64,000 bases of DNA, taken from NCBI GenBank assembly GCA_041746105.1, contig JBGTHP010000025.1, positions 154,682 through 218,681 on the forward strand. The letters run 5' to 3'. The notes under the pieces are model-generated. The model saw only the letters and a program-made list of their open reading frames with translations, searched no databases and was not told where the DNA came from. Positions 1 through 41,314 of this stretch are shown here, piece by piece; the stretch's first letter is position 1; each line of letters begins with the position of its first letter. The DNA comes from Acidimicrobiia bacterium (GTDB taxonomy: Bacteria > Actinomycetota > Acidimicrobiia > Spongiisociales > ZC4RG35). The position numbers and the translations under genes are program-made.

Positions 1-1
1 G

Positions 2-10986: not shown

Positions 10987-10995
10987 AAAAGGTTT

Positions 10996-14248: not shown

Positions 14249-14376
14249 CCTTCTGATCCACGACAAACAATTCCCGGATGGGGTGGGCCCCACGTGGACG
14301 GGATCAAGGAAGCTCGCGTTGGAGTGTGGTTCGAGGCGTCTCGCCGCAACCGGGCTGTTCTCCTAGCATCGATTCG

Positions 14377-17267: not shown

Positions 17268-17268
17268 C

Positions 17269-18542: not shown

Positions 18543-18600
18543 CGGGACGATCGGTCACAACATATCGTTTGGGGCCGAATGATCGAGAGAGAGGACGGCT

Positions 18601-19487: not shown

Positions 19488-20636
19488 TCAGCGCGAGCGG
19501 CCGGTGGGAGAGTCAGACATCGTCAGGGATTGTCGATTTTCGAGTGTGAATCTGTCCTCCGGCTTCCAGCGTCCCATCGCCATTCCGGCAACATATTCGC
19601 CAACCACCGGCGCATGCTTGAAGATCGAGCCCGAACCTCCCCCGGCAAAGATCACGTCCGGTTGCTCTGGATGAAAGTCCAGCAAGAAGTGGGTATCCGG
19701 GGTCATCACGATCTGGCACACCCTCTGGTCCATGATCGGTTGTTGCGCCAACTCCGGGAAGCGATATGAAAGGTACTGCCGGCTCCGGGTGAGGGCACCC
19801 TGGTCCACCACCCGGTCGTCGTTGTCGAGGTCGATGTCCGTTTCGTGCCACGCGATTACGGCCTTGAACCCGCATCCTTCGACATCCGGAATCCCGTAAC
19901 CGGGGTAGCCGTGATCGATCCAAACCGGATGGTTGTCGGCGTGATATCTGGTGCTACCCGGCGGGGGCGCGGTGTAGATCACGTCCTGGCGCACAACCCG
20001 CAGCACTCGTCCCAGGGTTTGTCGATACATCTGGCCCATCCATGCCCCAGTCGCCACCACCGTCCGATCCGCCTTCAGCGGCTCCCCGTCCAGTTGGAGT
20101 CTTTCTTTGGCGCCGGTGCTCGGTCGTCCCAGTCGGAACCGCCCTCCGAGTGTCTGATACTCCTCGAACGCCCTGACCAGCGCTCGTCGTGCCCAGATGA
20201 ATCCTGCCTCGGGTTCGAATATGGCGAACTCGACCCGCTGGAAGTTCATGTGCGGATAACGCTGTTCCAACTCGTCTCTGGCAAGGCGAAAAGCTGGTAT
20301 CCCGAGGCGTTCCAGCGTCGGCAGGGCTGCTGCTTCCCAGGCGGAATGGCCGGTGGCCGCCATCACCAGACCACCGGTCTGGCGGAAGAGTTCGGTGTTC
20401 CAGTCGCGACCCAATTCCAGCCAGCGTTGCCGCGACTCATACTGCCAGCGGGTATACAGCTCGTCTGCGCCGTGAGCAGACCGGGTCACCCGGTGATGAT
20501 CAGAGGAGGCCGCCCTGGCATGTCCCGGCTCCCAGCCGTCGTACAAAACAACGTCACACCCCTGTTTTCGCAGCTCCAATGCAGTCATCACGCCTACGAT
20601 GCCAGCACCGATTACGGCGTATCGAGTGGCGGTCAT
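19488..20636 (-). CDS. FAD-dependent oxidoreductase (DAO family; sarcosine-oxidase-beta / PuuB-like amine oxidase)
   Basis: N-terminal YAVIGAGIVGVMTALEL Rossmann (GxGxxG). Start taken at the internal M (MTATRY...). Confidence 0.8.
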   Translation of the reverse strand: MTATRYAVIGAGIVGVMTALELRKQGCDVVLYDGWEPGHARAASSDHHRVTRSAHGADELYTRWQYESRQRWLELGRDWNTELFRQTGGLVMAATGHSAWEAAALPTLERLGIPAFRLARDELEQRYPHMNFQRVEFAIFEPEAGFIWARRALVRAFEEYQTLGGRFRLGRPSTGAKERLQLDGEPLKADRTVVATGAWMGQMYRQTLGRVLRVVRQDVIYTAPPPGSTRYHADNHPVWIDHGYPGYGIPDVEGCGFKAVIAWHETDIDLDNDDRVVDQGALTRSRQYLSYRFPELAQQPIMDQRVCQIVMTPDTHFLLDFHPEQPDVIFAGGGSGSIFKHAPVVGEYVAGMAMGRWKPEDRFTLENRQSLTMSDSPTGRSR

Positions 20637-20669
20637 GGCTCTCCCGGGGTCGCTTTCACGTCGCTTGAA

Positions 20670-20683
20670 TACTGTATACAGAA
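20670..20683. promoter_or_regulatory. palindromic operator-like motif tACTGTATACAGaa (site 1 of 4) in the divergent promoter region between the FAD-oxidase gene and the GS-like/BMC operon
   Basis: Perfect 10-bp palindrome CTGTATACAG at 20672-20681. Related motifs at 34236, 36346 and 36858. Confidence 0.55.
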
Positions 20684-20722
20684 TAGCTAGGGTCGCGCCA
20701 GCACAACCGAGGAGGATCATTG

Positions 20723-22012
20723 ATGGCGGCGCTCGATGAGGGCATCACAACGGTGGTGATGGGGATTGGCGACCTCAACGGCATCCTCCGCGGCAAGCGC
20801 ATCCCGATCTCGCACTGGCCAACGATCCGCGAGGAGGGGATGGCGCTTTCCAACGCCATCTTCGCCATGGACATGAATTGTGACATCTGGGACACACCCT
20901 ACGCCAACATGGGGACCGGTTACCCCGATGTCAGGGTGTTCCCGCTTTCGGAGAAGCCCCACCTGATGCCCTGGGATCCCGGCGCGGCGTTTGTGATGGG
21001 AAGGGTCGAAAAAGAACACGGCGGCCCACTCGAGATCGACCCGCGCAACGCTTTGGTGAAGGTCACGGAGAAGGCCAGTTCCATGGGACTGAACGTACTG
21101 ATCGGGGCCGAGCTCGAGTTCTTTTTGCTCGATCCGGAAACCCTCCAACCCCGGGACAGCGGCATCCAGGTCTATGGGTTGGAGCGAGCGATGGAACTCG
21201 AACCCGTTCTGGGCCCGATTCGCGACCAGTTGGTGGCGGCGGGCATCCCGATCGAACAGTCCAATCCGGAATATGCTCCCGGCCAGGTCGAGGTGAACAT
21301 CCGGTACTCGGACGCCCTCGAAACCGCCGACAGGGTGGTGGCATTCCGTGGCATGGTCAAACAACTGGCCGTGACGCATGGGTATGTCGCCTCCTTCATG
21401 GCCAAACCGTTCTTCGAACACTCCGGAAACGGCTTCCATGTGCACCATTCGGCAACCGACGATTCGGGCAAGAATCTCTTTGCCTCGGGCGGCCATCTAT
21501 CGGACCTGGGGACGTCGTATCTCGCCGGGTTGCGCAAGCACATGATGGAACTGGCAGTGTTCTCGGCTCCCAACCCAAACGCCTACCGGCGCCGGCAGCC
21601 TTACACCTTTTGCCCGATCAACAACGCATGGGGAGTCGACAATCGTACGGTCGGCCTCCGGGTGATCGAAGGACCGGACAAGATCGTGCGTGTCGAGCAG
21701 CGAGACGCGTCAGCCGACGCCAACCCGTATCTTCTGCTCGCGGGCCAGATCGCCGCCGGTTTGGCCGGCATCGAGGGTGGCTGGGACCCGGGGCCGGCAG
21801 AGACAGGCGATGGATACGCCAACGAAGCTGCAGATCCGCTCCCGCTGGAGTTAGGCTCGGCTATCGCTCTCGCTCAAGACTCAAACCTGATCAAATCCGT
21901 GTTCGACCCTGATCTGTTGGGTATCTATCTCAGTCAGGCGGCGAGAGAGATCGAATTCATCGGTGCCCAGGTCACGCCGCTCGAGCGTGAACGTTATCTC
22001 CGGAGCTTCTGA
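20723..22012 (+). CDS. glutamine-synthetase-like gamma-glutamyl-amine ligase (GlnA3/GlnA4/PuuA/GmaS-like)
   Basis: GS catalytic motifs GAELEFFL, NPEYAPGQVEVN, SGNGFHVHHS, NPNAYRRR and NRTVGLRV. Approximately 430 aa. RBS GAGGAGGA 7 nt before the ATG. Confidence 0.85.
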   Translation: MAALDEGITTVVMGIGDLNGILRGKRIPISHWPTIREEGMALSNAIFAMDMNCDIWDTPYANMGTGYPDVRVFPLSEKPHLMPWDPGAAFVMGRVEKEHGGPLEIDPRNALVKVTEKASSMGLNVLIGAELEFFLLDPETLQPRDSGIQVYGLERAMELEPVLGPIRDQLVAAGIPIEQSNPEYAPGQVEVNIRYSDALETADRVVAFRGMVKQLAVTHGYVASFMAKPFFEHSGNGFHVHHSATDDSGKNLFASGGHLSDLGTSYLAGLRKHMMELAVFSAPNPNAYRRRQPYTFCPINNAWGVDNRTVGLRVIEGPDKIVRVEQRDASADANPYLLLAGQIAAGLAGIEGGWDPGPAETGDGYANEAADPLPLELGSAIALAQDSNLIKSVFDPDLLGIYLSQAAREIEFIGAQVTPLERERYLRSF

Positions 22013-22317: not shown

Positions 22318-22320
22318 GTG

Positions 22321-22602: not shown

Positions 22603-22610
22603 ACTGATCG

Positions 22611-23780
22611 ATGACGACCGCGGGTTTCCATGAGGCGGTTGCGGCGTTTTCTGCGCCGGTTTCGGCTCGCCCCGACCCCAGAACGCCGGCTCGGGTCACC
22701 GTGCTCGGCTCGGGGGTTGAGGGTCGCGCCCTCGCGGCATGGTTCCTGGCAGAAGGCGCAGACCAGGTCAGTCTCTTCTCGGTGTACCAAGATGAATTGA
22801 CGGCACTTGCCCGAGGATCGATCACTCTGCGCGGAGACGGGCCGGTGGGGACATTCCGAGTAGGGGGCGAGGCCCCGTCGATCGCGTCGACATCGGTTTT
22901 GGATCGGTCGGTGGAAGGTGCCGATCTGGTCGTGATTTCGGGCCCCGTGCTGAAACAACGGACCTATGGGCTGGTGGTCGCCCCTTACCTACACGACGGT
23001 CAAACAATCTTGGTGGTTCCTGGTCGGTCGCTGGCGGCCCTCGAACTCCTTCAATCGATCCGTGCCGGTGGCAGCACCGCCGATGTGCGCTTGGTGGAGG
23101 TCGATGATCTACCTTTTGACATCGGCGTCGATGGGTCGACTCTGACGTTGACCCGGCGCCGGACCGTCAGAGCCGGTGTCTACCCCGGCTCGGCCACATC
23201 GGTTCTAGAGGGTTTGCGTCGTTTTTTCCCGGAACTGGTTTCCGCCACGTCGGTCCTCGATTCGACCCTTGGCGACGGTTCGGGCATCGTCTCGATCCCG
23301 GCGCTCCTGGTGGGCGGACCCGGCGCACCACCCATCGAAAGTGCAGGACCTCCCGGTGCGGTGTTGCTGAACCCGAACACTTTCCGCGGGCTGATCGGGG
23401 ATGCCCAAATACAATTGGTGGCGGCGTTGGCAGACGAGCGCAGAGAAGTGGCGAGTCGCTTTGGGTTGCGTGCGCTCCCGAGCGACGAAGAATGGTTGGA
23501 TGCCGTGGCAGGCTCCACAGAGGGCACTGGAGTGCGAGCAGTCCCTGACGAAGCCACCGCCCGCAGTCTGCTTCGAGATGCGGTGCTCGGCTCCCTTGTC
23601 CCCTTGACGTCGATGGCGAACGCCGCCGGCGTCGCCGCCCCGGTCACGGAAGCCATGATCGAGTTGTCGGAGCGCGTTCTTGGGACCGCGCTGCGAGCCA
23701 GCGGCAGGAATCTGGATCTCTGCGGGCTAGGGGGCCTGAGTGCGCCCGAGATTCGGGCCCGGCTGGCGGTGGCGTCGTGA
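22611..23780 (+). CDS. NAD(P)-binding oxidoreductase, opine-dehydrogenase-like (Rossmann N-domain plus helical C-domain)
   Basis: VTVLGSGVEGRALAAWFLAEG dinucleotide motif resembles opine DH (VLGLGNGGHAFAAYLALKG). Approximately 389 aa. 8-nt gap after BMC-H. Family assignment is tentative. Confidence 0.5.
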   Translation: MTTAGFHEAVAAFSAPVSARPDPRTPARVTVLGSGVEGRALAAWFLAEGADQVSLFSVYQDELTALARGSITLRGDGPVGTFRVGGEAPSIASTSVLDRSVEGADLVVISGPVLKQRTYGLVVAPYLHDGQTILVVPGRSLAALELLQSIRAGGSTADVRLVEVDDLPFDIGVDGSTLTLTRRRTVRAGVYPGSATSVLEGLRRFFPELVSATSVLDSTLGDGSGIVSIPALLVGGPGAPPIESAGPPGAVLLNPNTFRGLIGDAQIQLVAALADERREVASRFGLRALPSDEEWLDAVAGSTEGTGVRAVPDEATARSLLRDAVLGSLVPLTSMANAAGVAAPVTEAMIELSERVLGTALRASGRNLDLCGLGGLSAPEIRARLAVAS

Positions 23781-25159
23781 CCGATGCCGACCTGAGAAGT
23801 ATCGCCCAGGCGCGGCGCGCAGTAGAGGCCGCCCATGTCGCCCAGCAGCGATTTCTTGCCACCGATCCGTCACGTATCGACGAGATCGTCGAGGCGATGG
23901 CGCGTGCGGTCGAGATCGACGCCGCCCGACTCGGCGCGCTCGCAGCCGAGGAGACCGGCTACGGCAACGCAGAGGACAAACGAATCAAGAACCTCTTCAA
24001 CTCGATCGGAGTCGCAGAGTGGCTGCGCAACGTCAAGACTCTTGGAGTCCTATGGCAAGACCCGGTTACAAAAGTGGTGGCGATAGGCGAACCGATGGGG
24101 GTAGTGGTCGCCCTAATCCCGGTAACCAACCCGACCTCGACCATCATCTTCAAAGTGCTGTCTGCGGTGAAAGCCGGCAATGCCATCGTGTGTGCACCAC
24201 ATCCACGCGGGGTCGGGTGCGGAATGGAAACCGTAAAAGTGATGATGACTGCGGCGGCCGAGCACGGGGCGCCGGACAACCTGATCCAATGTCTTTCCGA
24301 GGTGACCGTCGAGGGCACCCAGGAGCTGATGCGCCACCGCCGGACGTCGGTGGTCATGGCGACCGGGGGATCGGCGATGGTTCGAGCGGCCTATTCCTCC
24401 GGTAAACCGACCCTGGCGGTGGGCCCAGGGAACGTGCCCGTGTACGTCCATGCGTCGATGCGCGACGAGCTTCGCGAAGTCGCCGATCAAATCCTCACGT
24501 CCAAGTCGTTCGACTACGGCACGGCGTGCGCAGCGGAGCAGGCCGTGGTCGTCGACAGGGCCGTCGCCCCGCTGCTCGAACAGGAGGTCCGCCAATTGGG
24601 CGGCTACTTCTGCACGACGGGTGAGGCAGCCAGACTGGCCGATGTGATCTTTGACGACAACCAGGTGATCCGGCCTGGGGGAGTGGGGCAGTCGGCCTCC
24701 GAACTCTCTCGCAGGGCAGGTTTTGGAGTTCCCCCCAACACCCGTGTTCTCCTCGCCCGTGAGAGCGAGGTCGGACGAAACCGCCCACTCTCGCTCGAGA
24801 AACTGAATCCGGTGCTGGCCTGGTACGACGCCCCGAGTGAGGATCAGGCGTATGAACTGTGCTTCCAGATCTTGCGATTCGGCGGTAGGGGTCACACTTC
24901 GGCGATCCACACCAAAGATCCCGCCATTGTCGCCCGGTTTGGCCGCCTACCGGCAGGAAGGGTCCTGATCAACCAACCGGCGCTGATGGGGGCAATGGGA
25001 TACTCGGCCGACCTCGAACCGAGCTTCATGCTGGGCACGGGGACCGTATCTGGCTCGATCGTGTCAGACAATGTGACCGCCTTGCATCTGATCAACATCA
25101 AACGTGTCGCCTACGAGTCGAGACCGTGGCGCAGCATCTACGACGTATACGGAGCGTGA
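23777..25159 (+). CDS. CoA-acylating aldehyde dehydrogenase (EutE/PduP family)
   Basis: Approximately 460 aa with FDYGTACAAEQ active-site region (cf. FDNGxxCxSEQ). Lacks the ELGGKSP/GQxC motifs of hydrolytic ALDHs. Sits between shell genes. Confidence 0.85.
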   Translation: MTDADLRSIAQARRAVEAAHVAQQRFLATDPSRIDEIVEAMARAVEIDAARLGALAAEETGYGNAEDKRIKNLFNSIGVAEWLRNVKTLGVLWQDPVTKVVAIGEPMGVVVALIPVTNPTSTIIFKVLSAVKAGNAIVCAPHPRGVGCGMETVKVMMTAAAEHGAPDNLIQCLSEVTVEGTQELMRHRRTSVVMATGGSAMVRAAYSSGKPTLAVGPGNVPVYVHASMRDELREVADQILTSKSFDYGTACAAEQAVVVDRAVAPLLEQEVRQLGGYFCTTGEAARLADVIFDDNQVIRPGGVGQSASELSRRAGFGVPPNTRVLLARESEVGRNRPLSLEKLNPVLAWYDAPSEDQAYELCFQILRFGGRGHTSAIHTKDPAIVARFGRLPAGRVLINQPALMGAMGYSADLEPSFMLGTGTVSGSIVSDNVTALHLINIKRVAYESRPWRSIYDVYGA

Positions 25160-25161
25160 CC

Positions 25162-25791
25162 ATGAACCGACCTGGAACCGTGGTCAGAGCCCTGCTTCAG
25201 ATCGATCGACTTCAGCCAAAATTCGCCGCCTACAACGGTGCCACCGTTCAGGGGTCTATTCCCCTCGCCGGGGACACGATCCTCGTTGGCGAGATGGCGC
25301 CAGGCAACGAGGTGTTCAGATTGATCGACACCGCCTTGAAAGCAGCCACCATCGAGGCGACCAGCCAGATCGTGGAGCGCGAATTCGGGTTCTTCATCCT
25401 CCGATCACCCAGTAATGCGGAGATCAGCGCAGCCCGCGACGCGATTCTGGCCCATCTCGGGATCACGATGTCCGATCGGCTGAAACCGGTCGTGGAATCT
25501 ACCCAGATCATCACCTCGGTTGAGCCCTATCAGGCCCAACTTCTCAACAAATGGCGCAAAGGGTCCCTTCTGGTACCCGGCCAAACTCTCGGCATCGTCG
25601 AATGCGCTCCCGCTGCCTATATCTCGATAGCGGCCAACGAGGCCGAGAAGTCGGCCGATATCGACATCGTCGAGGTACGCGCGGTCGGCCGTTTCGGTCG
25701 ATTCTTCATGTCGGGATCGGAAGCGGCGGTTGAGACCGCAATGGAGGCGGCCGTCATCGCACTCCAAGCGGTAGAAGGAAGGGCCCAGTGA
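25162..25791 (+). CDS. tandem-domain BMC shell protein (BMC-T-like)
   Basis: Two approximately 90-aa BMC-like halves. The second half (TLGIVECAPAAYISIAANEAEKSADIDIVEV...GSEAAVETAMEAAV) is a clear BMC domain. Confidence 0.7.
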   Translation: MNRPGTVVRALLQIDRLQPKFAAYNGATVQGSIPLAGDTILVGEMAPGNEVFRLIDTALKAATIEATSQIVEREFGFFILRSPSNAEISAARDAILAHLGITMSDRLKPVVESTQIITSVEPYQAQLLNKWRKGSLLVPGQTLGIVECAPAAYISIAANEAEKSADIDIVEVRAVGRFGRFFMSGSEAAVETAMEAAVIALQAVEGRAQ

Positions 25792-26999
25792 CCTCTGGTC
25801 GACCGGTGATTCACCCCGGGGCCGGGGTGATCGGCGAGGTCGATGTGCTCGGCGCGTTCCGGCAGGGACGCCGTACGCTCCATGTCCAGCCAAGCGCCCT
25901 GGTCACCAATCAGGCGGCGGAGGCGGCTCAGCGGCTCGGTGTTTCCATTGTTGTGGGGGCTCCGACGGCGGCGGCAGTGCCCGCCACCGACGGGGCCGCG
26001 GTACTCCGCCGATCGCTTTACCGACGCAGCCCGAAGTTTGTACCGTCGGAAAAGCCCAGAGGCCTCCAACCATCGACGCTGGGACGACTCGTTATCGTGG
26101 GAGCGGGCGGTGTCGGATCCAATACGGCCCATCTGGCGGCTTCGCGCTCGCTTGCCCACGAGATCGTGCTCATCGACGTGGTTCCAGGATCGGCGGCCGC
26201 CACTGCCCTCGACCTCGAACATTCGGCCGGCATCACCGGTTCAACATCGCGTTTGAGTGGAGGAACCGACCTGGCGATGATCGAGGGGGCCGACGTCGTG
26301 GTCATAACCGCCGGTCGGCCCCGGTCCCCTGGCATGTCCAGAAGTGATCTGGTCGGGACCAATGGCAGGGTTGTACGCCAGGTGTCGGAACAAGTGGCGT
26401 CGGTTGCCCCGGGATCCGTCGTGATCGTTGTCACGAACCCACTAGACGAGATGACCGTGGAGGCGCTACGTGCAACCGGCTTTCCCAGAGAGCGCGTTCT
26501 GGGGATGGCGGGCACTCTCGACTCCGCACGATTCAGGTCGTCCTTGGCGAGAGCCGCCGGCGTTGACCCTGGCGATGTCGAGGCGATCACTCTGGGTAGC
26601 CATGGCGAGGAGATGGTCCCGATCATCAGCACCGCCACGGTACGCGGCCGTCCGCTTGACACGGTGCTGACTCCCGAGCAGATCGACCGCTGCGTCGCCG
26701 AAACCGTTGCGGGAGGTGGTCAAATCGTCGCGCTTCGCAAATCGGGCTCCGCAACCTTGGCTCCGGCCCACGCAACGCTCGAGGTTCTCGAGTCGATTCG
26801 AGGCGCCCGGGCGGGAGCCATCCCGGTTTCGATTCGCTTGGAAGGCGAATACGGGATCAGCGGCACGGTGGTGGGTGTTCCAACAATATTGGGCTCGGCC
26901 GGCGTGATCGAGATCGTCGAGTTGCCGCTGGCCTCAGGAGAAATGTCTGCACTGGCTCGCGCCGCGGCCGCCGTCGCCGCCCGAGTAGCCTCGGTCTGA
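25788..26999 (+). CDS. L-lactate/malate dehydrogenase-family oxidoreductase with approximately 95-aa N-terminal extension
   Basis: LVIVGAGGVGSNTAHL Rossmann, VVITAGRPRSPGMSRSDL and GSHGEEMVPI LDH/MDH motifs start at about aa 100. GTGA overlap with the BMC-T stop supports the long N-terminus. Confidence 0.8.
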   Translation: MTSGRPVIHPGAGVIGEVDVLGAFRQGRRTLHVQPSALVTNQAAEAAQRLGVSIVVGAPTAAAVPATDGAAVLRRSLYRRSPKFVPSEKPRGLQPSTLGRLVIVGAGGVGSNTAHLAASRSLAHEIVLIDVVPGSAAATALDLEHSAGITGSTSRLSGGTDLAMIEGADVVVITAGRPRSPGMSRSDLVGTNGRVVRQVSEQVASVAPGSVVIVVTNPLDEMTVEALRATGFPRERVLGMAGTLDSARFRSSLARAAGVDPGDVEAITLGSHGEEMVPIISTATVRGRPLDTVLTPEQIDRCVAETVAGGGQIVALRKSGSATLAPAHATLEVLESIRGARAGAIPVSIRLEGEYGISGTVVGVPTILGSAGVIEIVELPLASGEMSALARAAAAVAARVASV

Positions 27000-27526
27000 T
27001 GGGTTTCGAAGAAGTCGAGTTCGGGTCTCGCAAGGTTGTGGCCGTGAGCCGGCCTTCCAAGCCGCGTAAGCGTGAGGGCCGGGCAAGCACGCAGAAGCCC
27101 GATCCATCGGAGCCGCCGGCCGACACGGGAGCGGTCCTGGTTCCCCTTGATCAGTGGACGAGTATTCTCAACCAACTCGGAAACCTCCACCAGGCGGGTC
27201 AGCAGATGGCCGACGCCAGGGAACGGGCGGCGAAGGCCGAAACGGAAGCCTTTTTCCTCAAGGAGCGGCTGCGGGAATTACGAGAGGAACTTGCCAAGGC
27301 GAGAGCTGCGGCCACGGAATTCGTCAACAGCACCGCATCCGTCGACACCGAAGTGGCTCCAACCGACACCGGGGTCACTGCGACCGGCGATCCGGCAAGC
27401 GGCGCAAGCGAAATCGGCCAAGTCCAAGAAGACGAAGACGTCGCCATTGACCTCACCACCGACCGGGTGCTCATTGTCAGGCTTCCGAGCAGAGTCACCA
27501 AATGGTGGCTCGAGCGGCGGACCTGA
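26999..27526 (+). CDS. hypothetical coiled-coil protein
   Basis: ATGA overlap with the upstream stop. E/K/R-rich helical composition. An alternative-frame ORF (27072-27545) looks like an Arg-rich translation artefact. Confidence 0.45.
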   Translation: MGFEEVEFGSRKVVAVSRPSKPRKREGRASTQKPDPSEPPADTGAVLVPLDQWTSILNQLGNLHQAGQQMADARERAAKAETEAFFLKERLRELREELAKARAAATEFVNSTASVDTEVAPTDTGVTATGDPASGASEIGQVQEDEDVAIDLTTDRVLIVRLPSRVTKWWLERRT

Positions 27527-27545
27527 TGAGAAAGCCGACGGCGCT

Positions 27546-28457
27546 GTGAGAGTGGCAGCAGTTCAGGCGGCTCCTGTTTGGCTCGACCGCGCCAAAACGA
27601 TCGAGGTCGTCGTCGATTCGATCGCGGCGGCGGCCGCCGGGGGAGCAGAAGTGGTCGCCTTCCCGGAGACGTTCTTACCCGGATATCCGGTATGGGTCGA
27701 CATGACCGACGCCGCCAGTTGGGAAAATCCGCGTCAAAAGGACGCATACGCCTGGTATGTGGACCAGGCGGTTGATCTGGCGGGCGCCGAGTTCGAGTTG
27801 GTGGTCAATGCCGTGAAAGACCATGGCGTGTTCGCCTATGTCGGGGTGGTGGAGCGATCAGCTTCTGCTGGTTCGGTCTACTGCACCTTGGTGGCGATTC
27901 ATCCAGACGAAGGTGTGGTGGGAGCACACCGCAAGCTCAAGCCGACCTTTGGGGAGCGTTTGGTCTGGGCCGACGGCGATGGAGCCGGCCTGAAAGCCCA
28001 CAGATGGAAGGAGGCGACCCTCACCGGATTGAACTGTTGGGAGAACTGGATGCCACTGGCGCGAGCAGCCATGTACTCGCTCGGGTCACAGATTCACATC
28101 GCGACGTGGCCCGGATCGACGAAACTGACCCAGGACATCACCCGGTTCATCGCCAAGGAGGGCAGAGTGTTCGCAGTCAGCGTCGGCGGTGTCTATCGGG
28201 CAGAAGATATCCCCTCGTCATTCCCACTTGCCGAGCAAATGCTGGCGCACGCCTCTGAGTTCTACAACGGTGGTTCGATGATTGTTGCTCCGGACGGGTC
28301 TGTCATCGTCGGGCCGGTGGCGTCGGAAGAGGGGCTGTTGTTCGCCGATCTCGATCTTGCGATGGTTACGCGGGAACGCCAGAACTTCGACCCGTCAGGT
28401 CACTACTCCCGTCCCGACGTGCTACACCTAGCCGTCGACAGGAAACGAAACGCCTGA
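27546..28457 (+). CDS. carbon-nitrogen hydrolase (nitrilase/amidase superfamily)
   Basis: VAAVQAAPVWLD...AFPETFLPGYP (Glu), HRKLKP (Lys) and LNCWENWMP (Cys) form the Glu-Lys-Cys triad. GTG start. Confidence 0.8.
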   Translation: MRVAAVQAAPVWLDRAKTIEVVVDSIAAAAAGGAEVVAFPETFLPGYPVWVDMTDAASWENPRQKDAYAWYVDQAVDLAGAEFELVVNAVKDHGVFAYVGVVERSASAGSVYCTLVAIHPDEGVVGAHRKLKPTFGERLVWADGDGAGLKAHRWKEATLTGLNCWENWMPLARAAMYSLGSQIHIATWPGSTKLTQDITRFIAKEGRVFAVSVGGVYRAEDIPSSFPLAEQMLAHASEFYNGGSMIVAPDGSVIVGPVASEEGLLFADLDLAMVTRERQNFDPSGHYSRPDVLHLAVDRKRNA

Positions 28458-31179: not shown

Positions 31180-32601
31180 TCACCAGGTGAAGGGCCGGTC
31201 GATACCGGCCATCTTGACGCCGGTGAACGCGCTCGCCTCCAGGCTCAGTGCACGGAGATCCTCGACCTCGAGGTTGTGCACCGAACTTTTGCCGCAAGCC
31301 TTGGCCAGCAGCGTGATCTCCATCGTCATCGCCGTCAGGTAGCGAGCCACCCTTTCGGCCCCGGCTGCGACCTGCATGCGTTTCTCCAGCTCGGGGTCTT
31401 GTGTCGTGATTCCGACCGGACAGCGTCCGGTGTGACAGTGGTGACACTGCCCGGGAGCGGTACCCAACGCTTCGTAGTCGTCGAGATACCTTGGACTGTT
31501 GCACCCCAGTGCCATCAGAGCCGCGGTGCCGATCATGACACAGTCGGCGCCGAGGGCGAGAGCCTTGGCCGCATCAACACCGGAGCGGATTCCACCGGCG
31601 GCCACCAACTTGACCTCGTCGGCCATGCCGCAATCTTCCAGCGCCTGTCTGGCGGCTCTGATCGCGGACAGGGTGGGAATGCCGGTGTGGTCGAGCAGCA
31701 GTTCTGGTGAGGCGCCGGTCCCTCCCTCGGCCCCATCGACCACGATCACGTCGGCGCCGGCCTTGGCGGCGATGGCCACATCAAAACGAGGCCGGGTGGC
31801 CCCCATCTTGACAAACATCGGGATCTTGTAGTCGGTCGCCTCCCTCAGTTCCTCGATCTTCACCTGGAGATCGTCGGCGCCGAGAAAATCTGGGTGACGT
31901 ACGGTCGAACGTTGATCCACACCCAGCGGCAACGAACGCATCTTGGCCACTCGTTCAGAAACCTTCATCCCGAGCAGGATTCCACCGGTCCCCGGCTTGG
32001 CCCCCTGGCCAACGACTATCTCGATTGCGTCTGCCCTTCGCAGATGATCCAGGTCGAGCATGTAACGCGACGGGGTCATCTGGTAGACGAGTTTGTTGGA
32101 TGCCTCGCGTTCGTCTTCGAGCATCCCGCCCTCGCCGGTACACGTCATCGATCCGACCTTTGAGGCGCCGTATCCGAGGGCGGCCTTGGCCGACGCCGAG
32201 AGAGCGCCAAAAGACATCGATGCGATGTATATCGGGATCCCCAGGTCGAGTGGCTGTGAAACAAGACCCTTGCGGTCGCCGAGGACTGTGCGGGTGTCAC
32301 AGCTCTCTCGGTATCCTTCGAGAGGGAGTCGAGTCATCGAAGCCGGAACAAAAACGAGGTCGTCAAAGGTGGGAAAACTCTTGTTTGCGGTGGTGAAACC
32401 ACGAATCTGATAGCGGCCGAGCCTCGACAGTGCGTGGACCTCCGATATCGACTCCGGGGTCCACCGGATCGACTTTCCTGGTGCGTACGAGGATGGGACC
32501 CCGGCCGGGCGCCCGCCGATTCCGCCGTCGGTCATCGCCACCGCGTCTTCGTCTGGCATCGGGAATGGGTACTGGTACCCCTGGGTCAGATCATCAGCCA
32601 T
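31180..32601 (-). CDS. glutamate-synthase-family FMN-binding protein (GltB domain 2-like; MgsC-like)
   Basis: Glu_synthase FMN/Fe-S domain (GGTGASP, CxxGxC cluster region). Approximately 473 aa. Confidence 0.85.
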   Translation of the reverse strand: MADDLTQGYQYPFPMPDEDAVAMTDGGIGGRPAGVPSSYAPGKSIRWTPESISEVHALSRLGRYQIRGFTTANKSFPTFDDLVFVPASMTRLPLEGYRESCDTRTVLGDRKGLVSQPLDLGIPIYIASMSFGALSASAKAALGYGASKVGSMTCTGEGGMLEDEREASNKLVYQMTPSRYMLDLDHLRRADAIEIVVGQGAKPGTGGILLGMKVSERVAKMRSLPLGVDQRSTVRHPDFLGADDLQVKIEELREATDYKIPMFVKMGATRPRFDVAIAAKAGADVIVVDGAEGGTGASPELLLDHTGIPTLSAIRAARQALEDCGMADEVKLVAAGGIRSGVDAAKALALGADCVMIGTAALMALGCNSPRYLDDYEALGTAPGQCHHCHTGRCPVGITTQDPELEKRMQVAAGAERVARYLTAMTMEITLLAKACGKSSVHNLEVEDLRALSLEASAFTGVKMAGIDRPFTW

Positions 32602-33278
32602 GCGCTCGCATCCCTACTCTCGAAGTGCCACAACCGTTGCCCCGACACGATTTTCTTCCAGTCGAACGAACCCGTTATGTCGAGGCCGGCCAGCAGCTGG
32701 GATACGTCGGCAACCTCTTCTGCCGTCGGCTCGACGACATCCGTATCCACGCCGAGAGACTTGATCGGCCCTGCCACCCACACCTCGCCACCCCACAACG
32801 AATCACCGCACGCGTCCTCTGTGCCCTCGAGGGCGATGATGCGACCGGCGTGGGCCATGAACCCCGTCAAAAACCCGACCTTCCCCTCCACGACGATGTC
32901 GCCGCCCTTCATTGCCACACCGCAGCGGGGTCCGGCGTCGCCTTTGACATGGATCAGTCCGCCCCGCATGGAGGCGCCAACGCTCATCCCTGCGTACCCG
33001 TCCACGGTGACGGATCCCTTGGCCATGGCCTCACCGGTACCCCAGCCGGCGTTGCGGGTGACCCTGATCGTCGCCCCGTTGTTGAGGCCGCCGCAGTAAT
33101 AACCGACCGAACCGTCGAAGAGGATGTCGGCGCCTTCCGGCAGCGCAACCCCGAGGTTGTGTCGCGAGAGGGTGTCGCGAACCATGACCCGTTCACCTTC
33201 TGCGATTGCCATACGGATCTCGGCGTTCACCTCTCGGATCGGCCTGTCGCCGACAACCACCTCCACGCGATCGGTCAT
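32586..33278 (-). CDS. glutamate synthase GXGXG-domain protein (MgsB-like)
   Basis: Repeated GxGxG beta-helix motifs (GDAGPRCGVAMKGGDIVVEG). Confidence 0.8.
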   Translation of the reverse strand: MTDRVEVVVGDRPIREVNAEIRMAIAEGERVMVRDTLSRHNLGVALPEGADILFDGSVGYYCGGLNNGATIRVTRNAGWGTGEAMAKGSVTVDGYAGMSVGASMRGGLIHVKGDAGPRCGVAMKGGDIVVEGKVGFLTGFMAHAGRIIALEGTEDACGDSLWGGEVWVAGPIKSLGVDTDVVEPTAEEVADVSQLLAGLDITGSFDWKKIVSGQRLWHFESRDASAWLMI

Positions 33279-34219
33279 ACGCCGACTCCCACCCCGGTGT
33301 GGTAGATGTGGCTTTCGAGAGGCCCGTCGTAATTGATGACCGACACTTCATCCCGGTAGATCTTTCGGATCGCCTGTTCTTCTGTTGCGATGGCGACATT
33401 GCCGTCCGCCTCATCGACGACGACGAGCGGCTTGATGGCGAATCGATCCTTGGCGAAACCGACCATGTCCTCGGTTGACAGGATGTAGGTGAAACATCCG
33501 TCGAGCGCCGACTTGGACATCTCCAATGACTCGGTCAGTGAATTCCCTGCCGCCATCTGATCCGAAAGCCAGACCGCAATGACCTCGGAGTCGTTTTGGG
33601 TCTTGAAGTCATAACCCTTCCGTTTCAGGCGATCGGTGAGGAGGTAATAGTTGGTCAATTGGCCGTTGTGGACGATGGCGATGTCTGGATAGGGGCGCGC
33701 CCAGAACGGATGGGAGGCGGTGGGGGATACGAAGGACTCTGTGGCCATTCTGGCGTTGCCAACACCGTGAGTTCCCCGAAAGTCCCGTACCCCATGTTTG
33801 TCGGCTACCTCGTAGGCATCTCCGAGGTCCTTGATGATTTCGAGGGATCGACCAACCGATTGCAGCTCGAGGCCAGGGATGTGGTCTGCTTCGGCCAACC
33901 AGCGTTCTAGCCCGCTCTCGGGGTCGCCAACGATTGCCCTGATCGACACGTGACGTTGATTCAGCGAATCCCACGTCGGGTCTTCGAGGAAATCGGAGCC
34001 GTGTTCGCGGCTTACGGCGAGAAAGGTGTCCAACACCGAGGAGATGTCAGAGCGATCGGCGGCCACCGCTCTGATGACATAACCAGACTCACGCCTCGGC
34101 CCGTAGAGACCGAATCCGGTGGAATCGGCGCCACGATGGCGCTGGGCCTGCATCATTTCGACGAGGTCTTGTCCCAGTGATCCATCTAGGGAGCAGATTC
34201 TGGCGGCTATTCCGCACAT
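33275..34219 (-). CDS. class-II glutamine amidotransferase (GltB N-terminal domain-like; MgsA-like)
   Basis: MCGIAARI N-terminal nucleophile Cys. True start taken at the internal M (34219) so that Cys is residue 2. Confidence 0.85.
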   Translation of the reverse strand: MCGIAARICSLDGSLGQDLVEMMQAQRHRGADSTGFGLYGPRRESGYVIRAVAADRSDISSVLDTFLAVSREHGSDFLEDPTWDSLNQRHVSIRAIVGDPESGLERWLAEADHIPGLELQSVGRSLEIIKDLGDAYEVADKHGVRDFRGTHGVGNARMATESFVSPTASHPFWARPYPDIAIVHNGQLTNYYLLTDRLKRKGYDFKTQNDSEVIAVWLSDQMAAGNSLTESLEMSKSALDGCFTYILSTEDMVGFAKDRFAIKPLVVVDEADGNVAIATEEQAIRKIYRDEVSVINYDGPLESHIYHTGVGVGV

Positions 34220-34235
34220 TCCAACCTCCGGTGTG

Positions 34236-34249
34236 TACTGAATACAGTA
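34236..34249. promoter_or_regulatory. palindromic operator-like motif TACTGAATACAGTA (site 2) upstream of the split glutamate-synthase-like operon
   Basis: 5-bp inverted arms TACTG/CAGTA with AATA spacer, 17-20 nt upstream of the corrected start. Confidence 0.5.
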
Positions 34250-34278
34250 TACCATCTGCCTTGGCCACCGCGGAAGCC

Positions 34279-34881
34279 CTAGACGGCGAGGAGGTGGTCG
34301 AGAAGCTCGAGATGGTCGCGGGCTTCTGCAGGTTTGATCGGAATCGAGTAGGGCGGCATCGGAGGGAAATACACCGCGGTGATGGTGCCGGGAAGCGGAG
34401 TGATCACGATGCGCCGGCCACCCTGGTCGCTTTCGACAACGATCGACTTCAGTTCGGAACGGCCTGCAAGCCTTGTCGTGGTCTCGTCCGACAACCGCGC
34501 CCCGAGTCCGTCGTCGAGGCCCTTCTTGCGAACGAATCGTTTCTTGTCGAAGCGATATTCAAACCGGCTCGGGTCGGGACCGAGGGTCCCCGTGATCCCA
34601 ACCCATTGGGTGTCGATCAGTGCGCCGAACATCCGGTATCGCCCATGAAACCCGACTTCAATCGTGCGATCGGTCAGTTCGACCCTGGCCGACTGGAAAA
34701 GCGTGTCATCGATGTCGACTGCTTCGCCAAAACGTTGCAGCAGGGCGGCGGTCGGAACCTCCATCAACGTCTGGCGGCGCTGTCGATATAGCCGGCGCGC
34801 CCGTCGGCGCAGGCTCAGCGGGATGGAGCCGGTCTTGCGACCGGCTCCATCTGGCAAAACCTCGTCTCCGCTCGAGGTCAT
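34279..34881 (-). CDS. hypothetical protein, translationally coupled to the upstream permease
   Basis: ATGA overlap with the permease stop. No confident family. Confidence 0.5.
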   Translation of the reverse strand: MTSSGDEVLPDGAGRKTGSIPLSLRRRARRLYRQRRQTLMEVPTAALLQRFGEAVDIDDTLFQSARVELTDRTIEVGFHGRYRMFGALIDTQWVGITGTLGPDPSRFEYRFDKKRFVRKKGLDDGLGARLSDETTTRLAGRSELKSIVVESDQGGRRIVITPLPGTITAVYFPPMPPYSIPIKPAEARDHLELLDHLLAV

Positions 34882-36293
34882 ATCTTCTGTTCCACCTCTT
34901 CGCTGAGATGGTCTACGACGCCAGAGCTCGATCGCAGGAGCCAGCAGAGCACCGCGCCGACGAAGGATCCGCCCACCATCCACAAGGCCCTCCGGCCGAA
35001 GAAGGCGTGACCGTCGGAGACGGGGAGGAAGGCATTCCACCAGACATACAGCGTCATCGCAAGACCGAGCGCCGGTACCACCAGCGGGAGTTTGAATGGC
35101 CTATCCACACTCGAATTGGTGAACCGGGAGACGATCACCAAGACGTGGTAGACGGCATAGAGCAGGATCCAGGTGTAGGCCGCCGTGAATATCTGCTCGA
35201 TCACGCCGCCGTAGGCGATCGCAACCCAGGTGTAGACCACTGCGGTGACGATTGTCGCCACCCAGGGCGTCCGGTAGCGCGGATGGATATGGCCGAATAC
35301 TCTGGACAGGGGTCCAAAGAAGTGGCCGTTACGTGCGATCCCGTAGATGATGCGAGGCATTGCTGCATAAACGATGGTCATCGAGGCGAAGGTCGCCAGC
35401 ACCGAGGCCAGAGCCATCAGGACCCGGCCGCTGCTGCCAAACATCGCGATTCCGACATCGAGTTGGGGAGCGTCCTCGGACACCTGTGAGATCCAGTCGG
35501 CATTGATTCCGCTGACACCAAGCCCCATGAACAACGACGTAGCGAGGATGGCAAAAATGCCGTACACGATCCCTCGCGGGATCGACCGGGTCGGGTCCTT
35601 GGTCTCCTCGGCCAACGGGGCGACAAACTCGATACCGACGAAACTCCAGAAGGCAAAACCGCCGGTCAGTGCCAACAATCCGGCGTAGCCCCCGAAATCA
35701 GGGATGGCTGCCGGAACCGCAGACCATGACCAGCTTCCGAGGTCGGAGAAACCACCAAACGCCGCTGCTCCGAAAAACCAGCGGATGCCGAGCATGCCGA
35801 CGAGCAACGTCAGTTCGAGGCGCGCCAGGGCTTCGATTCCGATCAGGTTGGGAACCACCGCCAGGATGGTGAGGATGACGATCCACATCGACACCGACCC
35901 CGCATTGAAGAGTCCCTGCGCGCCAAACGCGCCGGCGGTGGTCTCTCCGCCACCGGCGAAGGCGAACATCACATAAAACAGAAAGCCGAGGAACACCCCG
36001 ACGATCGTTTTTCCGGCCTGACCTCCCGGAGTTGCAGCGGCCCCGTAGTCGTATAGGGCCCCGGCCTTGGGGTAAGTCGTGGAGAGTTCGGCCGCCGACA
36101 GGCCCAACAACAGGTTGAGCACTGCCGAGGCGACCAGCGCCAGGGCAAAAGTCCTTCCGCCAAGGAACCAGCCTTGGAAGTCGGACACCAGGGTGCTGGC
36201 GGCGACCACAAGGCCGACTCCAGCCGCAAAGATGTCCCACGTTCCGAGTGCCTTGACCAGGCTCTCGGATTGCTCGATGTCTACTTTTGCCAT
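34878..36293 (-). CDS. APC-superfamily amino acid/amine permease
   Basis: Approximately 12 predicted transmembrane segments. Typical APC N-terminal region. Confidence 0.85.
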   Translation of the reverse strand: MAKVDIEQSESLVKALGTWDIFAAGVGLVVAASTLVSDFQGWFLGGRTFALALVASAVLNLLLGLSAAELSTTYPKAGALYDYGAAATPGGQAGKTIVGVFLGFLFYVMFAFAGGGETTAGAFGAQGLFNAGSVSMWIVILTILAVVPNLIGIEALARLELTLLVGMLGIRWFFGAAAFGGFSDLGSWSWSAVPAAIPDFGGYAGLLALTGGFAFWSFVGIEFVAPLAEETKDPTRSIPRGIVYGIFAILATSLFMGLGVSGINADWISQVSEDAPQLDVGIAMFGSSGRVLMALASVLATFASMTIVYAAMPRIIYGIARNGHFFGPLSRVFGHIHPRYRTPWVATIVTAVVYTWVAIAYGGVIEQIFTAAYTWILLYAVYHVLVIVSRFTNSSVDRPFKLPLVVPALGLAMTLYVWWNAFLPVSDGHAFFGRRALWMVGGSFVGAVLCWLLRSSSGVVDHLSEEVEQKI

Positions 36294-36425: not shown

Positions 36426-36821
36426 TCAGAGAATGCTGGAGATTATGGCGTCGACTTCAACCTCGACCACCATGCCAGGTGTGGTGAGGCCAACGGCAAC
36501 ACCGGTGGTCACGGGGCGTATCCCGGCAAAAACCTCTCCGTGGGCCCGGATGGCGTCGTTGGAGACCGCCATGTCGGAGAAGTAGAGACGGGTACGGACC
36601 ACATCGCCGAGAGCGGCGCCGACGTCGGCGAGAGCCTTGGCGACACGAGCGAAGGCATAGATGGTTTGGGCGTACCCGTCCCAGGGTGCATGCAATTTGC
36701 CAGAGGGTTCGATCGCGGTGGTGCCGGCAACAAAAACAAAGGCACCCACTCGTTTGACCCTTGCGTACGAGCCGATCTCTTCGAACCGGCCGCCGCCACC
36801 GACGGTCTGAATCTCCACCAT
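36426..36821 (-). CDS. RidA/YjgF-family deaminase
   Basis: AGTTAIEPSGK...YFSDMA...VTTGVAVGLTTPGMVVEVEVDA pattern. Confidence 0.8.
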   Translation of the reverse strand: MVEIQTVGGGGRFEEIGSYARVKRVGAFVFVAGTTAIEPSGKLHAPWDGYAQTIYAFARVAKALADVGAALGDVVRTRLYFSDMAVSNDAIRAHGEVFAGIRPVTTGVAVGLTTPGMVVEVEVDAIISSIL

Positions 36822-36852: not shown

Positions 36853-36871
36853 CTGCATACTGAATGCAGAA
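36853..36871. promoter_or_regulatory. operator-like inverted repeat CTGCAT-actga-ATGCAG / TACTGAATGCAGAA (site 4) in the RidA-GntR divergent promoter region
   Basis: 6-bp inverted arms. Differs from site 2 by one base. Confidence 0.5.
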
Positions 36872-36906
36872 TGCGGTCCGGTCTACAGACAGATGGCGGT
36901 GATCCG

Positions 36907-37602
36907 ATGAAGTTCGAGCGACTCGAACGAAGCAGTGTTCGGTTGGCCGACTTCGTCTACGAGCAGATCTTTGCCGCCGTCCTGAGCGGCCAGATCTCGC
37001 CAGGGGAGAGATTGGTCCAGGAGGTTCTGGCCGACCAGATGGACGTCTCCCGGACGCCGGTGCGGGAGGCACTCCTTCGGCTGGAGTCCGAAGGCATCCT
37101 CGAGTCGTCGGATCGCGGTGGATTCATGGTGCGTTCGTTGGACGTTGGTGAAATTCGGGGAACCTACGAACTTCGGGCTGCGGTAGAGGGTTTTGCCGCT
37201 CGGCTCGCTGCGGAACGGGGCCGGCCGGAATCGATAGCTCACATCAAATCTGCAATTGCCGCCGCCGATGCCAGACCCACCACGCTGGACGCCGGTTTTG
37301 AACTGAACCGTCTCGTCCATCGTGCGATAGTCGAGGCGGCCGACAACCCCGCTTTTCTCGATTCCTTCGATTCGGTGTGGGGTCGGTCTCAATCATTCAG
37401 GATGTTCGCCAAGCTCCACGAAACCGAGCTCCGTTTTCTCGACGCCGAACCCGACCATCATGCAGTACTCGACGCAATTCTGGCCGGCGACGGTAGCCGT
37501 GCCCAGCAAGCGCTGACCGACCACATCCTCTCGGGGCTCGAACTCCAGCTCGGTGTGCTCGAGTCGGCCATGGCAGTTGAAGCCGGCACCGACCCAGTCT
37601 GA
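36907..37602 (+). CDS. GntR-family (FadR/FCD subfamily) transcriptional regulator
   Basis: N-terminal winged HTH (PGERLVQEVLADQMDVSRTPVREALLRLESEGIL) and C-terminal FCD-like helical domain. Confidence 0.85.
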   Translation: MKFERLERSSVRLADFVYEQIFAAVLSGQISPGERLVQEVLADQMDVSRTPVREALLRLESEGILESSDRGGFMVRSLDVGEIRGTYELRAAVEGFAARLAAERGRPESIAHIKSAIAAADARPTTLDAGFELNRLVHRAIVEAADNPAFLDSFDSVWGRSQSFRMFAKLHETELRFLDAEPDHHAVLDAILAGDGSRAQQALTDHILSGLELQLGVLESAMAVEAGTDPV

Positions 37603-40280: not shown

Positions 40281-40319
40281 GTGAGTCCAGTCGTTCGGTG
40301 CCGAACTATATGCGATCGT

Positions 40320-41249: not shown

Positions 41250-41314
41250 CACCGGACGGTAGCGGTCCCGTCCACGCCCGATAAGGTTCATTCAAAGTCG
41301 AGCCAGGAGTGCGA

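Follow-up and report, generated by a model that had tools for sequence, protein, structure and literature searches.

A putative N-methylglutamate synthase paralogue with a four-cysteine motif shares an operator with a MIC2-type microcompartment operon in an Acidimicrobiia bacterium

The reaction catalysed by canonical N-methylglutamate synthase (NMGS, MgsABC) is redox-neutral, with methylamine and glutamate being converted to N-methylglutamate and NH3. The reference gene cluster of the N-methylglutamate (NMG) pathway, located on plasmid pAMI6 of Paracoccus aminophilus, comprises the three synthase genes, glnT and genes for sarcosine-oxidase-like beta, delta and alpha subunits, and it is on account of the latter that the cluster is taken as canonical. 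From a different field of work, the MIC2 type of bacterial microcompartment (BMC) was catalogued in 2021 as one of the 'metabolosomes with an incomplete core', for which 22 loci are counted and the function is given as unknown (Sutter et al. 2021, PMC8217296); substrate, signature enzyme and NAD+ recycling of this type were listed as unknown in that year and, still, in 2024. Here, a 64,000-nucleotide stretch of contig JBGTHP010000025.1 from an Acidimicrobiia bacterium (the window) is described with a focus on three glutamate-synthase-like genes at its centre, referred to as the trio, which are found in one island with a MIC2-type operon. The trio is best explained as encoding one heterotrimeric enzyme, an NMGS paralogue possessing a four-cysteine iron-sulfur motif, a reading to which, taken as a whole, somewhat more credence than doubt is given.

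The initial annotation had described the trio as three overlapping, co-directional genes and these were found as described, each with the Pfam domain expected for it. Subunit A (34219..33275, minus strand; 314 aa) is a class-II (Ntn) amidotransferase starting with Met-Cys1 (Pfam GATase_6 3e-16, GATase_7 1e-15), subunit B (33278..32586, minus; 230 aa) a GXGXG beta-helix protein (PF01493, 1.3e-12) and subunit C (32601..31180, minus; 473 aa) an FMN glutamate-synthase-domain protein (PF01645 Glu_synthase, 2e-94). The genes for A and B overlap by 4 nt and those for B and C by 16 nt, whereby the latter overlap recurs unchanged in the Nitratireductor homologue (locus L087). The true start of subunit A had been placed at MCGIAARI, and ATG 34219 was indeed identified as the start codon, since MCGI is the N-terminus in four of five aligned homologues (the sequence used for the fifth begins at a later called start), a ribosome-binding site (GGAGG) lies 6 nt upstream, the alternative in-frame ATG upstream at 34255 overlaps a conserved operator and Ntn amidotransferases require Cys1. 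Alignment identified the motifs Cys1, GNARMATES, VHNGQ and NDSE in subunit A, while subunit C keeps QGAKPG and GGTGASP and possesses an N-terminal extension of about 25-40 aa. A promoter and terminator scan over 30.3-37 kb gave a yield not above chance.

The 'Fe-S' label given earlier to the FMN protein was supported by four cysteines (GC-x20-C-x2-C-x4-CP) located at the 3Fe-4S ligand site of GltB, and cluster binding is predicted from sequence. When aligned with GltB, three of these cysteines fall on ligand positions of the 3Fe-4S cluster, and subunit C differs from GltB in the fourth cysteine and in an insertion between Cys1 and Cys2. As a search of 1.84 billion representatives yielded numerous fragments along with two atypical sequences (P0121, P0124), full-length matches alone were used from it for the cysteine survey and for the tree described below. 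The four cysteines were found to be invariant in related loci (83 of 83), which show the same pattern as the window, GC-N-[ST]-P-R-x14-G-x-C-H-H-C-H-T-G-x-C-P-V-G. In the two canonical MgsC sequences examined, the four positions are taken by Glu/Asp, Tyr, Trp and Asp, and the insertion is common to both kinds of protein; archaeal-type FMN proteins possess a compact C-x2-C-x2-C-x4-C or C-x5-C-x4-C motif.

Regarding family placement, subunit C is 77-90% identical to members of its own clade, 54-57% to MgsC and about 30% to GltB, subunit A shares 52-77% identity with clade members and 33-34% with canonical MgsA, and the respective values for subunit B are 62-83% and, for the canonical glxC/MgsB of locus L005, 36%. 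The NCBIfam GltB model NF008730 scored the FMN subunit at 146.5 bits as compared to a cut-off of 1047, and because the score lies this far under the cut-off the trio is not an ordinary GltB. The best relatives of subunit C in plasmid records (54-56% identity) are genes of the 'FMN-binding glutamate synthase family' that adjoin glnT. The phylogenetic comparison with MgsABC and archaeal-type proteins, proposed in the initial annotation for the three subunits, was carried out for the FMN subunit as a neighbour-joining tree (no support values), in which the window clade stands beside two other four-cysteine proteins, canonical MgsC forms the next branch and the archaeal-type proteins lie outside. 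Window clade and MgsC, to both of which a 16-residue insertion relative to GltB is common, share a branch separate from GltB, on which the window clade occupies a branch of its own beside MgsC. Consequently, what endures of the earlier MgsABC-like reading is the three-protein split and an FMN subunit nearer to MgsC than to GltB, but the trio, as a member of a clade with a distinct Cys motif, is not orthologous to characterised MgsABC. Judged by these comparisons, the trio is a putative NMG synthase paralogue with an iron-sulfur cysteine motif.

The hosts of the clade comprise Acidimicrobiia, isolates of the Rhodobacteraceae (Ruegeria, Lentibacter, Falsiruegeria, Tropicibacter, Aliishimia), Hyphomicrobiales, Arenicellales, SUP05 and others, and hence include Alpha- and Gammaproteobacteria. 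In the neighbour-joining tree, Acidimicrobiia are nested among Proteobacteria and the clade phylogeny departs from that of the organisms, which suggests that the cluster spread horizontally. As a side aspect, the proteins of the cluster show an unusually high identity when those of Acidimicrobiia are compared with those of Proteobacteria (FMN subunit 77-84%, BMC-T 71-82%, aldehyde dehydrogenase 62-69%, glutamine-synthetase-like protein 55-64%), the GC content of the window is uniform (0.58-0.64), and taken together both point to a horizontal transfer of the entire cluster that took place long ago and not to a recent island.

The initial annotation had stated that the trio operon carries an operator motif shared within the island, and this motif was recovered at three places of the window, i.e., before the trio, before the operon encoding the glutamine synthetase (GS)-like protein and the BMC shell (GS-BMC operon) and in the GntR/RidA promoter region. 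Searching for ATACTGNATNCAGAAT with at most two mismatches gave these three places on both strands each, hence six matches where 0.06 were expected by chance. The individual palindromes are GTACTGAATACAGTAT (34235..34250), which precedes the start codon of subunit A by 15 nt, ATACTGAATGCAGAAT (36857..36872) in the divergent RidA/GntR promoter region and ATACTGTATACAGAAT (20669..20684) between the oxidase gene and the GS-like gene. The 16-bp palindrome ATACTGTATACAGTAT recurs at conserved positions in 51 of 85 loci across phyla; its start lies about 30-60 nt upstream of the tblastn match of the amidotransferase in most loci that carry it, about 73 nt upstream of that of the GS-like protein in many, and the palindrome is found upstream of transporter genes as well. 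Its TGT-N-ACA core fits operators of the GntR family. As the palindrome precedes both operons, trio and GS-BMC operon are most probably one regulon, which is probably controlled through ATACTGTATACAGTAT by the GntR/FCD-family regulator encoded next to the trio operon (36907..37602, plus; PF00392, PF07729; 231 aa, with the gene length as called in locus L001), the probable palindrome binder.

The trio operon itself is divergent from the regulator gene and is ordered RidA - APC permease - 200-aa protein - trio, with the trio making up the last three genes. Its first gene encodes a RidA/Rid-family imine deaminase (36426..36821, minus; PF01042 on record, TIGR00004 1.6e-8), followed by an APC-family permease (34878..36293, minus; AA_permease_2 3.7e-21) which matches the NCBIfam amino-acid and ethanolamine permease models weakly and is the likely substrate importer. 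The 200-aa protein (34279..34881, minus) is found in Acidimicrobiia loci only, is a called gene in locus L001 and co-occurs with the permease in 10 loci; DUF3156, a weak label on record for this gene, was dropped, as our own scan gave no Pfam match at E 0.01.

A GS-like ligase in the same island had been reported before, and was located at 20720..22012 (plus; Gln-synt_C 5.8e-84; probable start ATG 20723), where it is accompanied by a full BMC shell set, 9-11 kb from the trio. Alignment with E. coli GlnA, PuuA and two GlnT/GmaS sequences revealed the residues for metal, ATP and glutamate (E129, E131, E212, E220, H269, H271, R321, R339, R344, E357, R359) to be invariant, whereas those of the ammonium site are exchanged: Asp50 is replaced by Ser or Ala (by Ser in the window) and Glu327 by Phe, a position which is Trp in GmaS and Tyr in PuuA. 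Because Asp50 and Glu327 are absent, the protein is predicted to be an amine ligase and not a glutamine synthetase, and the same loss argues against a GS/GOGAT (glutamate synthase) pair for nitrogen assimilation. The view that the trio serves something other than general nitrogen assimilation was thus strengthened by the ammonium site of the ligase, by the shared operator and by the joint travel of trio and ligase across phyla. The ligase scores under the cut-offs of both the GlnT and the PuuA model, and with TIGR03105 (type III glutamate-ammonia ligase) reaches 228.6 as compared to a cut-off of 469.6; it is 30% identical to GlnT of L005 and 62% to the GS-like protein encoded next to the trio in Arenicellales. 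Among solved structures, 11ZS (E about 5e-53) and 5DM3 (about 5e-52), aligned over about 410 residues, match the ligase best, with the GmaS entries 7CQL and 9QUR ranking lower. 5DM3 is taken by us to be Csal_0679, whose gene adjoins that of Csal_0678, the ethanolamine-binding protein of the gamma-glutamyl ethanolamine pathway. Of the assumption that the GS-like partner is that of the NMG pathway, it therefore holds that a GS-like ligase of one kind travels with the trio (42 of 51 loci, see below), but the ligase is not GmaS and the oxidase is not MgdABCD.

Downstream of the ligase gene, on the plus strand, follow genes for BMC-P (EutN; 22012-22317; PF03319 1.7e-25), BMC-H (22318-22602; PF00936 2e-27), an opine-dehydrogenase-family NAD(P) enzyme (22611..23780; full-length match to PDB 1BG6, 1.4e-16) with a short N-terminal segment conserved across phyla, a CoA-acylating, EutE-like aldehyde dehydrogenase (23777..25159; TIGR02518 6.5e-144, PF00171), the tandem-domain shell protein BMC-T (25162..25791; PF00936; homologue on record CsoS1D_N + BMC; 71-92% identity across phyla) and an LDH-like malate dehydrogenase (25788..26999; NF004863 324.8, cut-off 283) with an N-terminal extension of about 100 aa. 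In this enzyme, the Arg of GRPRSPGMSR was placed by us, as an assumption, at the malate dehydrogenase specificity position 102. The complete MIC2 set is thus found at 20720-26999, and the BMC of the island matches the catalogued MIC2 type. Divergent from this operon lies a gene for an FAD enzyme of the DAO family resembling monomeric sarcosine oxidase (MSOX), i.e., a secondary-amine oxidase (19488..20636, minus; PF01266; ATG start read), which matches the NCBIfam models for N-methyl-Trp oxidase (6e-54) and soxA_mon (6.5e-48), both under the curated cut-offs, and MSOX itself (PDB 1EL5, 1.3e-34). Both the family of this oxidase and that of the opine-dehydrogenase-like cargo act on N-substituted amino acids, a point in favour of the pathway proposed below.

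For assessing conservation, the window proteins were compared by tblastn with 85 related loci, of which 51 genome loci possess full 10-kb flanks, and genes were counted within 10 kb. Among these 51, a GS-like gene of at least 55% identity is present in 42, RidA in 36, GntR adjacent to the trio likewise in 36, the MSOX-like oxidase in 32 and the four-gene BMC set in 29. Sampling in the reverse direction, from the BMC-T gene in metagenomes, identified the trio in 12 of 17 MIC2-like loci whose sequence continues for 2.5 kb or more past the oxidase gene, on its upstream side; since the gap between oxidase and trio reaches 7 kb in genome loci, the remaining 5 of 17 could still hold the trio farther out. 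In metagenome loci of a related BMC type (BMC-T 51-60% identical), the trio was found in none of 28. A second BMC-T group, 51-60% identical to the BMC-T of MIC2, was observed beside an aldehyde dehydrogenase (39-55% identity) in metagenome loci L143-L168, which lack GS-like gene, trio and oxidase and presumably belong to a related BMC type such as MIC1. Where the BMC is missing, the trio is still accompanied by GntR, RidA, the GS-like gene and an ABC transporter of the LIV type, whereby the substrate-binding protein of the LIV-type system in one non-BMC locus has distant PDB relatives only (best 6e-21) and was dropped as a pointer to the substrate. One such non-BMC locus (L088) additionally encodes a pipecolate-oxidase-like enzyme and a non-acylating aldehyde dehydrogenase, and within its 10-kb surroundings no C26 hydrolase was found. 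In all, 13 loci (e.g., L087 12239-12601 and L083 12211-12561) encode a small protein, about 116-120 aa long and without Pfam match, in which a C-x2-C-x5-C...C-P-N motif is conserved; in proteobacterial MIC2 loci it sits between a class-I amidotransferase and the oxidase, it is absent from the window, and it is a candidate metal or redox partner.

Considering these data, the trio is proposed to carry out an N-alkylglutamate-synthase-type step within a glutamate-mediated amine-to-aldehyde pathway that feeds the BMC, the regulon then serving to degrade a small primary amine or amino alcohol, which is judged to be a little more plausible than implausible. Gene anatomy, conserved co-occurrence, shared operator, family assignments, the Cys motif and the exchanged ammonium-site residues of the ligase are observed, whereas we infer each chemical step of this pathway, including which enzyme releases the aldehyde. 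The amine would be imported by the APC permease here, and by the LIV-type ABC system in Proteobacteria, and the GS-like ligase would convert it with ATP to the gamma-glutamyl-amide. Subunit A would then cleave the gamma-glutamyl-amide by means of Cys1 and pass the amine to the FMN subunit C, with subunit B serving as structural beta-helix, where it may be joined to the 2-oxoglutarate/glutamate skeleton to give N-alkyl-L-glutamate. Next, the MSOX-like flavoenzyme would oxidise the N-alkyl bond, a step which may also or instead be carried out by the opine-dehydrogenase-like BMC cargo, and RidA would aid imine hydrolysis, yielding glutamate and aldehyde. Within the MIC2 compartment the acylating aldehyde dehydrogenase would convert the aldehyde to acyl-CoA, and NAD+ may be recycled by the malate dehydrogenase. 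That the pathway follows the logic of the NMG pathway, adapted to a larger amine, is by analogy the best-supported reading.

A further-reaching model, which is put forward tentatively and is held to be possible rather than probable, assumes that trio, GS-like ligase and MSOX-like oxidase constitute the missing aldehyde-generating front end of MIC2, which would then be a new, ATP-driven and glutamate-mediated metabolosome. Here, the trio would act as a hitherto undescribed iron-sulfur-dependent N-alkylglutamate synthase whose cluster is redox-coupled to the oxidase, with amine and 2-oxoglutarate being converted in sum to aldehyde and glutamate without pyridoxal phosphate. In such a scheme the iron-sulfur cluster may accept electrons from the oxidase and thereby close a redox loop of oxidation and reductive N-alkylation.

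Several observations weigh against the N-alkylglutamate pathway as proposed. The invariant four-cysteine motif points to chemistry beyond the redox-neutral NMGS model, as the canonical reaction does not require it and the two canonical MgsC sequences are devoid of Fe-S cysteines. Within 10 kb, 9 of the 51 full-flank loci have no GS-like gene, and the loci of Arenicellales have no oxidase nearby, while proteobacterial loci also carry class-I amidotransferase/C26-type hydrolases. The nearest characterised relative of the ligase comes from the ethanolamine gamma-glutamylation route, which has no need of a trio. Finally, trio, ligase and oxidase do not differ in length between BMC and non-BMC loci in a way that would indicate an encapsulation peptide, and hence the aldehyde may be made outside the shell, unlike in classical metabolosomes.

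The main rival draws on some of the same observations and assumes a route like that of Puu or of ethanolamine degradation (Eto), in which the ligase would glutamylate an amino alcohol or diamine, whose free end would be oxidised within the BMC by the acylating aldehyde dehydrogenase and by the dehydrogenase that bears the conserved N-terminal segment, and a class-I amidotransferase/C26 hydrolase or a CN-hydrolase would free glutamate; the trio would then be a true iron-sulfur GOGAT that remakes glutamate from the released nitrogen, for which it would need 2-oxoglutarate, a reductant from outside and either glutamine or a gamma-glutamyl amide. Cysteines at the GltB cluster position would be explained directly by such an enzyme, class-I amidotransferase/PuuD-like genes are found in proteobacterial loci as well as at 14278-15081 of the window, and 5DM3 (5e-52; taken as Csal_0679, the neighbour in the ethanolamine pathway) is among the nearest solved relatives of the ligase. 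A GOGAT, however, would be expected to have a reductant source, and the cluster conserves no gene for GltD, for a ferredoxin domain or for another electron donor: neither the scanned window ORFs nor the conserved neighbourhoods hold one, although it could lie elsewhere in the genome. Moreover, the trio groups with MgsC rather than with GltB, the conserved oxidase, which this route leaves unexplained, is of the MSOX type, acting on N-substituted amino acids, and not of the PuuB type, and the non-BMC locus L088 manages without a C26 hydrolase within 10 kb. The Puu/Eto-like route is therefore considered doubtful.

The trio might alternatively be a plain MgsABC handling methylamine nitrogen, as an identical three-gene architecture, 54-57% identity of subunit C to canonical MgsC and the JGI label 'methylamine-glutamate N-methyltransferase subunit C' on some close homologues would imply; this is unlikely, given that the ligase is only 30% identical to GlnT/GmaS (score 228, cut-off 469.6), that subunits A and B reach only 33-36% identity to their canonical counterparts and that the Cys motif differs. 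No mgdABCD or other sarcosine-oxidase alpha/beta/gamma/delta-type genes were found in the window or in the annotated neighbourhoods examined, with a monomeric MSOX-like gene being present instead, and the CoA-acylating aldehyde dehydrogenase of the BMC would suit aldehydes of at least two carbons, not formaldehyde. Furthermore, Rhodobacterales hold both the canonical type (P. aminophilus) and the window type, which suggests paralogy. Least probable of all, and very unlikely in our judgement, is a housekeeping, archaeal-type split glutamate synthase of this genome. The domain set and the Fe-S cysteines do resemble split GOGATs, and neither gltB nor gltD was found among the ORFs of the 64-kb window scanned against Pfam (most of those of at least 200 aa). 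Yet a housekeeping enzyme is hard to reconcile with a pathway-specific operator common to trio and BMC/ligase operon, with the missing reductase subunit, with a clade tree that departs from organismal phylogeny and with the presence of the clade in Ruegeria, Nitratireductor and similar hosts, which normally have gltBD. The N-alkylglutamate-synthase-type reading is consequently the one retained.

The remainder of the window comprises genes of various functions. Between the trio and the plus-strand GS-BMC operon lie a PemK-type toxin gene with a preceding small ORF and genes of the GFO oxidoreductase family, for an HbpS-like protein and for a CN-hydrolase. The PemK/MazF-type toxin gene (30735-30406, minus; PF02452 9e-15) is preceded by a 78-aa ORF (30968-30732), possibly the antitoxin, and the pair is also present on the identical Logan contig L001. 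The CN-hydrolase (Nit6803-like) ORF at 26999-28457 has an N-terminal extension of about 160 aa, which overlaps a 175-aa Ala/Glu/Lys-rich ORF without Pfam match, so that the gene boundaries are tentative; it follows the malate dehydrogenase gene in three genome loci and one metagenome locus of the Acidimicrobiia type. Convergent with the GntR gene is an operon for a P450, an HpaE-like aldehyde dehydrogenase and a nucleoside hydrolase (37603-41291, minus), which recalls the P450 step of the ipu pathway, and a P450 gene adjoins GntR in six loci, five from Acidimicrobiia and one from an unclassified metagenome-assembled genome. A class-I glutamine amidotransferase/Peptidase_C26-like gene (14278-15081, plus), whose product is 29-32% identical to class-I amidotransferases flanking the trio in Nitratireductor, may encode the gamma-glutamyl hydrolase of the system, yet it is separated from the oxidase gene by 4.4 kb and is not accompanied by an operator match. 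Adjoining the oxidase gene, genes for an FAA hydrolase, a P450, an acetoacetate-decarboxylase-family protein and a LigB dioxygenase (15109-19476) look like an aromatic or ring-cleavage module, and of the 85 loci one holds the FAA hydrolase, six the P450 and none the acetoacetate decarboxylase or LigB dioxygenase together with the cluster. An aromatic-type (ARO) BMC, as these genes at 15-19.5 kb might indicate, was rejected, given that they do not co-occur with the cluster elsewhere and that the shell and enzyme set is that of MIC2. The left flank (1-13670) carries the housekeeping genes rimP-nusA-infB...truB-ribF...pnp, and the right flank genes for two thiolases, an ABC-F ATPase, an RNase H fusion, an Fpg-family glycosylase and an SLC12-like transporter.

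With these findings the MIC2 organelle gains a testable function, namely the breakdown of small amines through glutamate-bound intermediates. A description linking MIC2 or microcompartments to NMG or gamma-glutamyl pathways was not found in the searchable literature, and the membership of the trio in a MIC2 regulon appears to be previously undescribed. Trio, ligase, oxidase, RidA, transporter and BMC seem to make up a single operator-linked regulon whose conservation extends from Acidimicrobiia to isolates of the Roseobacter group, with Ruegeria sp. ANG-R, Lentibacter algarum, Falsiruegeria mediterranea and Aliishimia ponticola being cultivable carriers. If the pathway holds true, it would be a high-affinity, ATP-driven means by which small amines in the ocean are scavenged for their nitrogen and carbon. 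Proteins labelled 'FMN-binding glutamate synthase family / MgsC', widely mis-labelled, furthermore split in two, i.e., a Cys-less kind (canonical NMGS, two sequences) and a kind with four invariant cysteines, and this division bears on the annotation of methylamine use in marine metagenomes.

Comparison with described systems places the locus between several of them. The isopropylamine (ipu) cluster of Pseudomonas sp. KIE171 and Arthrobacter aurescens TC1 comprises, according to secondary descriptions, a GS-like gamma-glutamyl-alkylamide synthetase, a P450, an amidotransferase-type hydrolase, an aldehyde dehydrogenase and a permease, and the P450 gene next to GntR in Acidimicrobiia loci is reminiscent of it; no Arthrobacter plasmid is among the FMN-subunit matches listed, and ipu was set aside as closest model. 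With PuuABCD for putrescine and the ethanolamine pathway of Chromohalobacter, Agrobacterium and Phaeobacter (PMC10132767), the locus shares a GS-like ligase devoid of Glu327, an aldehyde dehydrogenase and, in proteobacterial loci of the window clade, a class-I amidotransferase-type hydrolase, but those pathways possess neither glutamate-synthase-like trio nor MSOX-type oxidase nor BMC, and the alignments of the ligase to 5DM3 and 11ZS are distant and not at orthologue level. GltB and the split archaeal-type GOGATs have the amidotransferase, FMN and GXGXG domains, the cysteines at the 3Fe-4S position and the motifs QGAKPG and GGTGASP in common with the trio, which differs in giving no central-domain match, in having neither GltD nor ferredoxin partner, in an identity of about 30% and in its pathway-specific regulation.

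As compared to MIC2, the window holds exactly the set described (one BMC-H, one BMC-P, one BMC-T, an aldehyde dehydrogenase and an LDH/MDH protein with N-terminal extension), and the '6PGDH-like' protein of the catalogue, whose short N-terminal extension may be an encapsulation peptide, corresponds to the opine-dehydrogenase-like enzyme of the window, as does the catalogued pfam00120 protein to the GS-like ligase. The catalogue text and family tables make no mention of the glutamate-synthase-like trio and list a DAO profile for MIC6 only, and neither RidA nor regulator nor operator was seen in the MIC2 text consulted. MgsABC (EC 2.1.1.21), finally, resembles the trio in the gene order of Ntn amidotransferase, GXGXG and FMN domain, packed or overlapping as in the canonical clusters L005 and L086, and in being linked to a regulator of the FCD family, a GS-like ligase and an enzyme from the sarcosine oxidase family. 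The window clade differs from it in the four cysteines, the N-terminal extension and subunits A and B of only 33-36% identity, in a ligase that is not GmaS, in an oxidase that is monomeric where MgdABCD has four subunits, and in the coupling of the whole system to an aldehyde dehydrogenase and often to a BMC.

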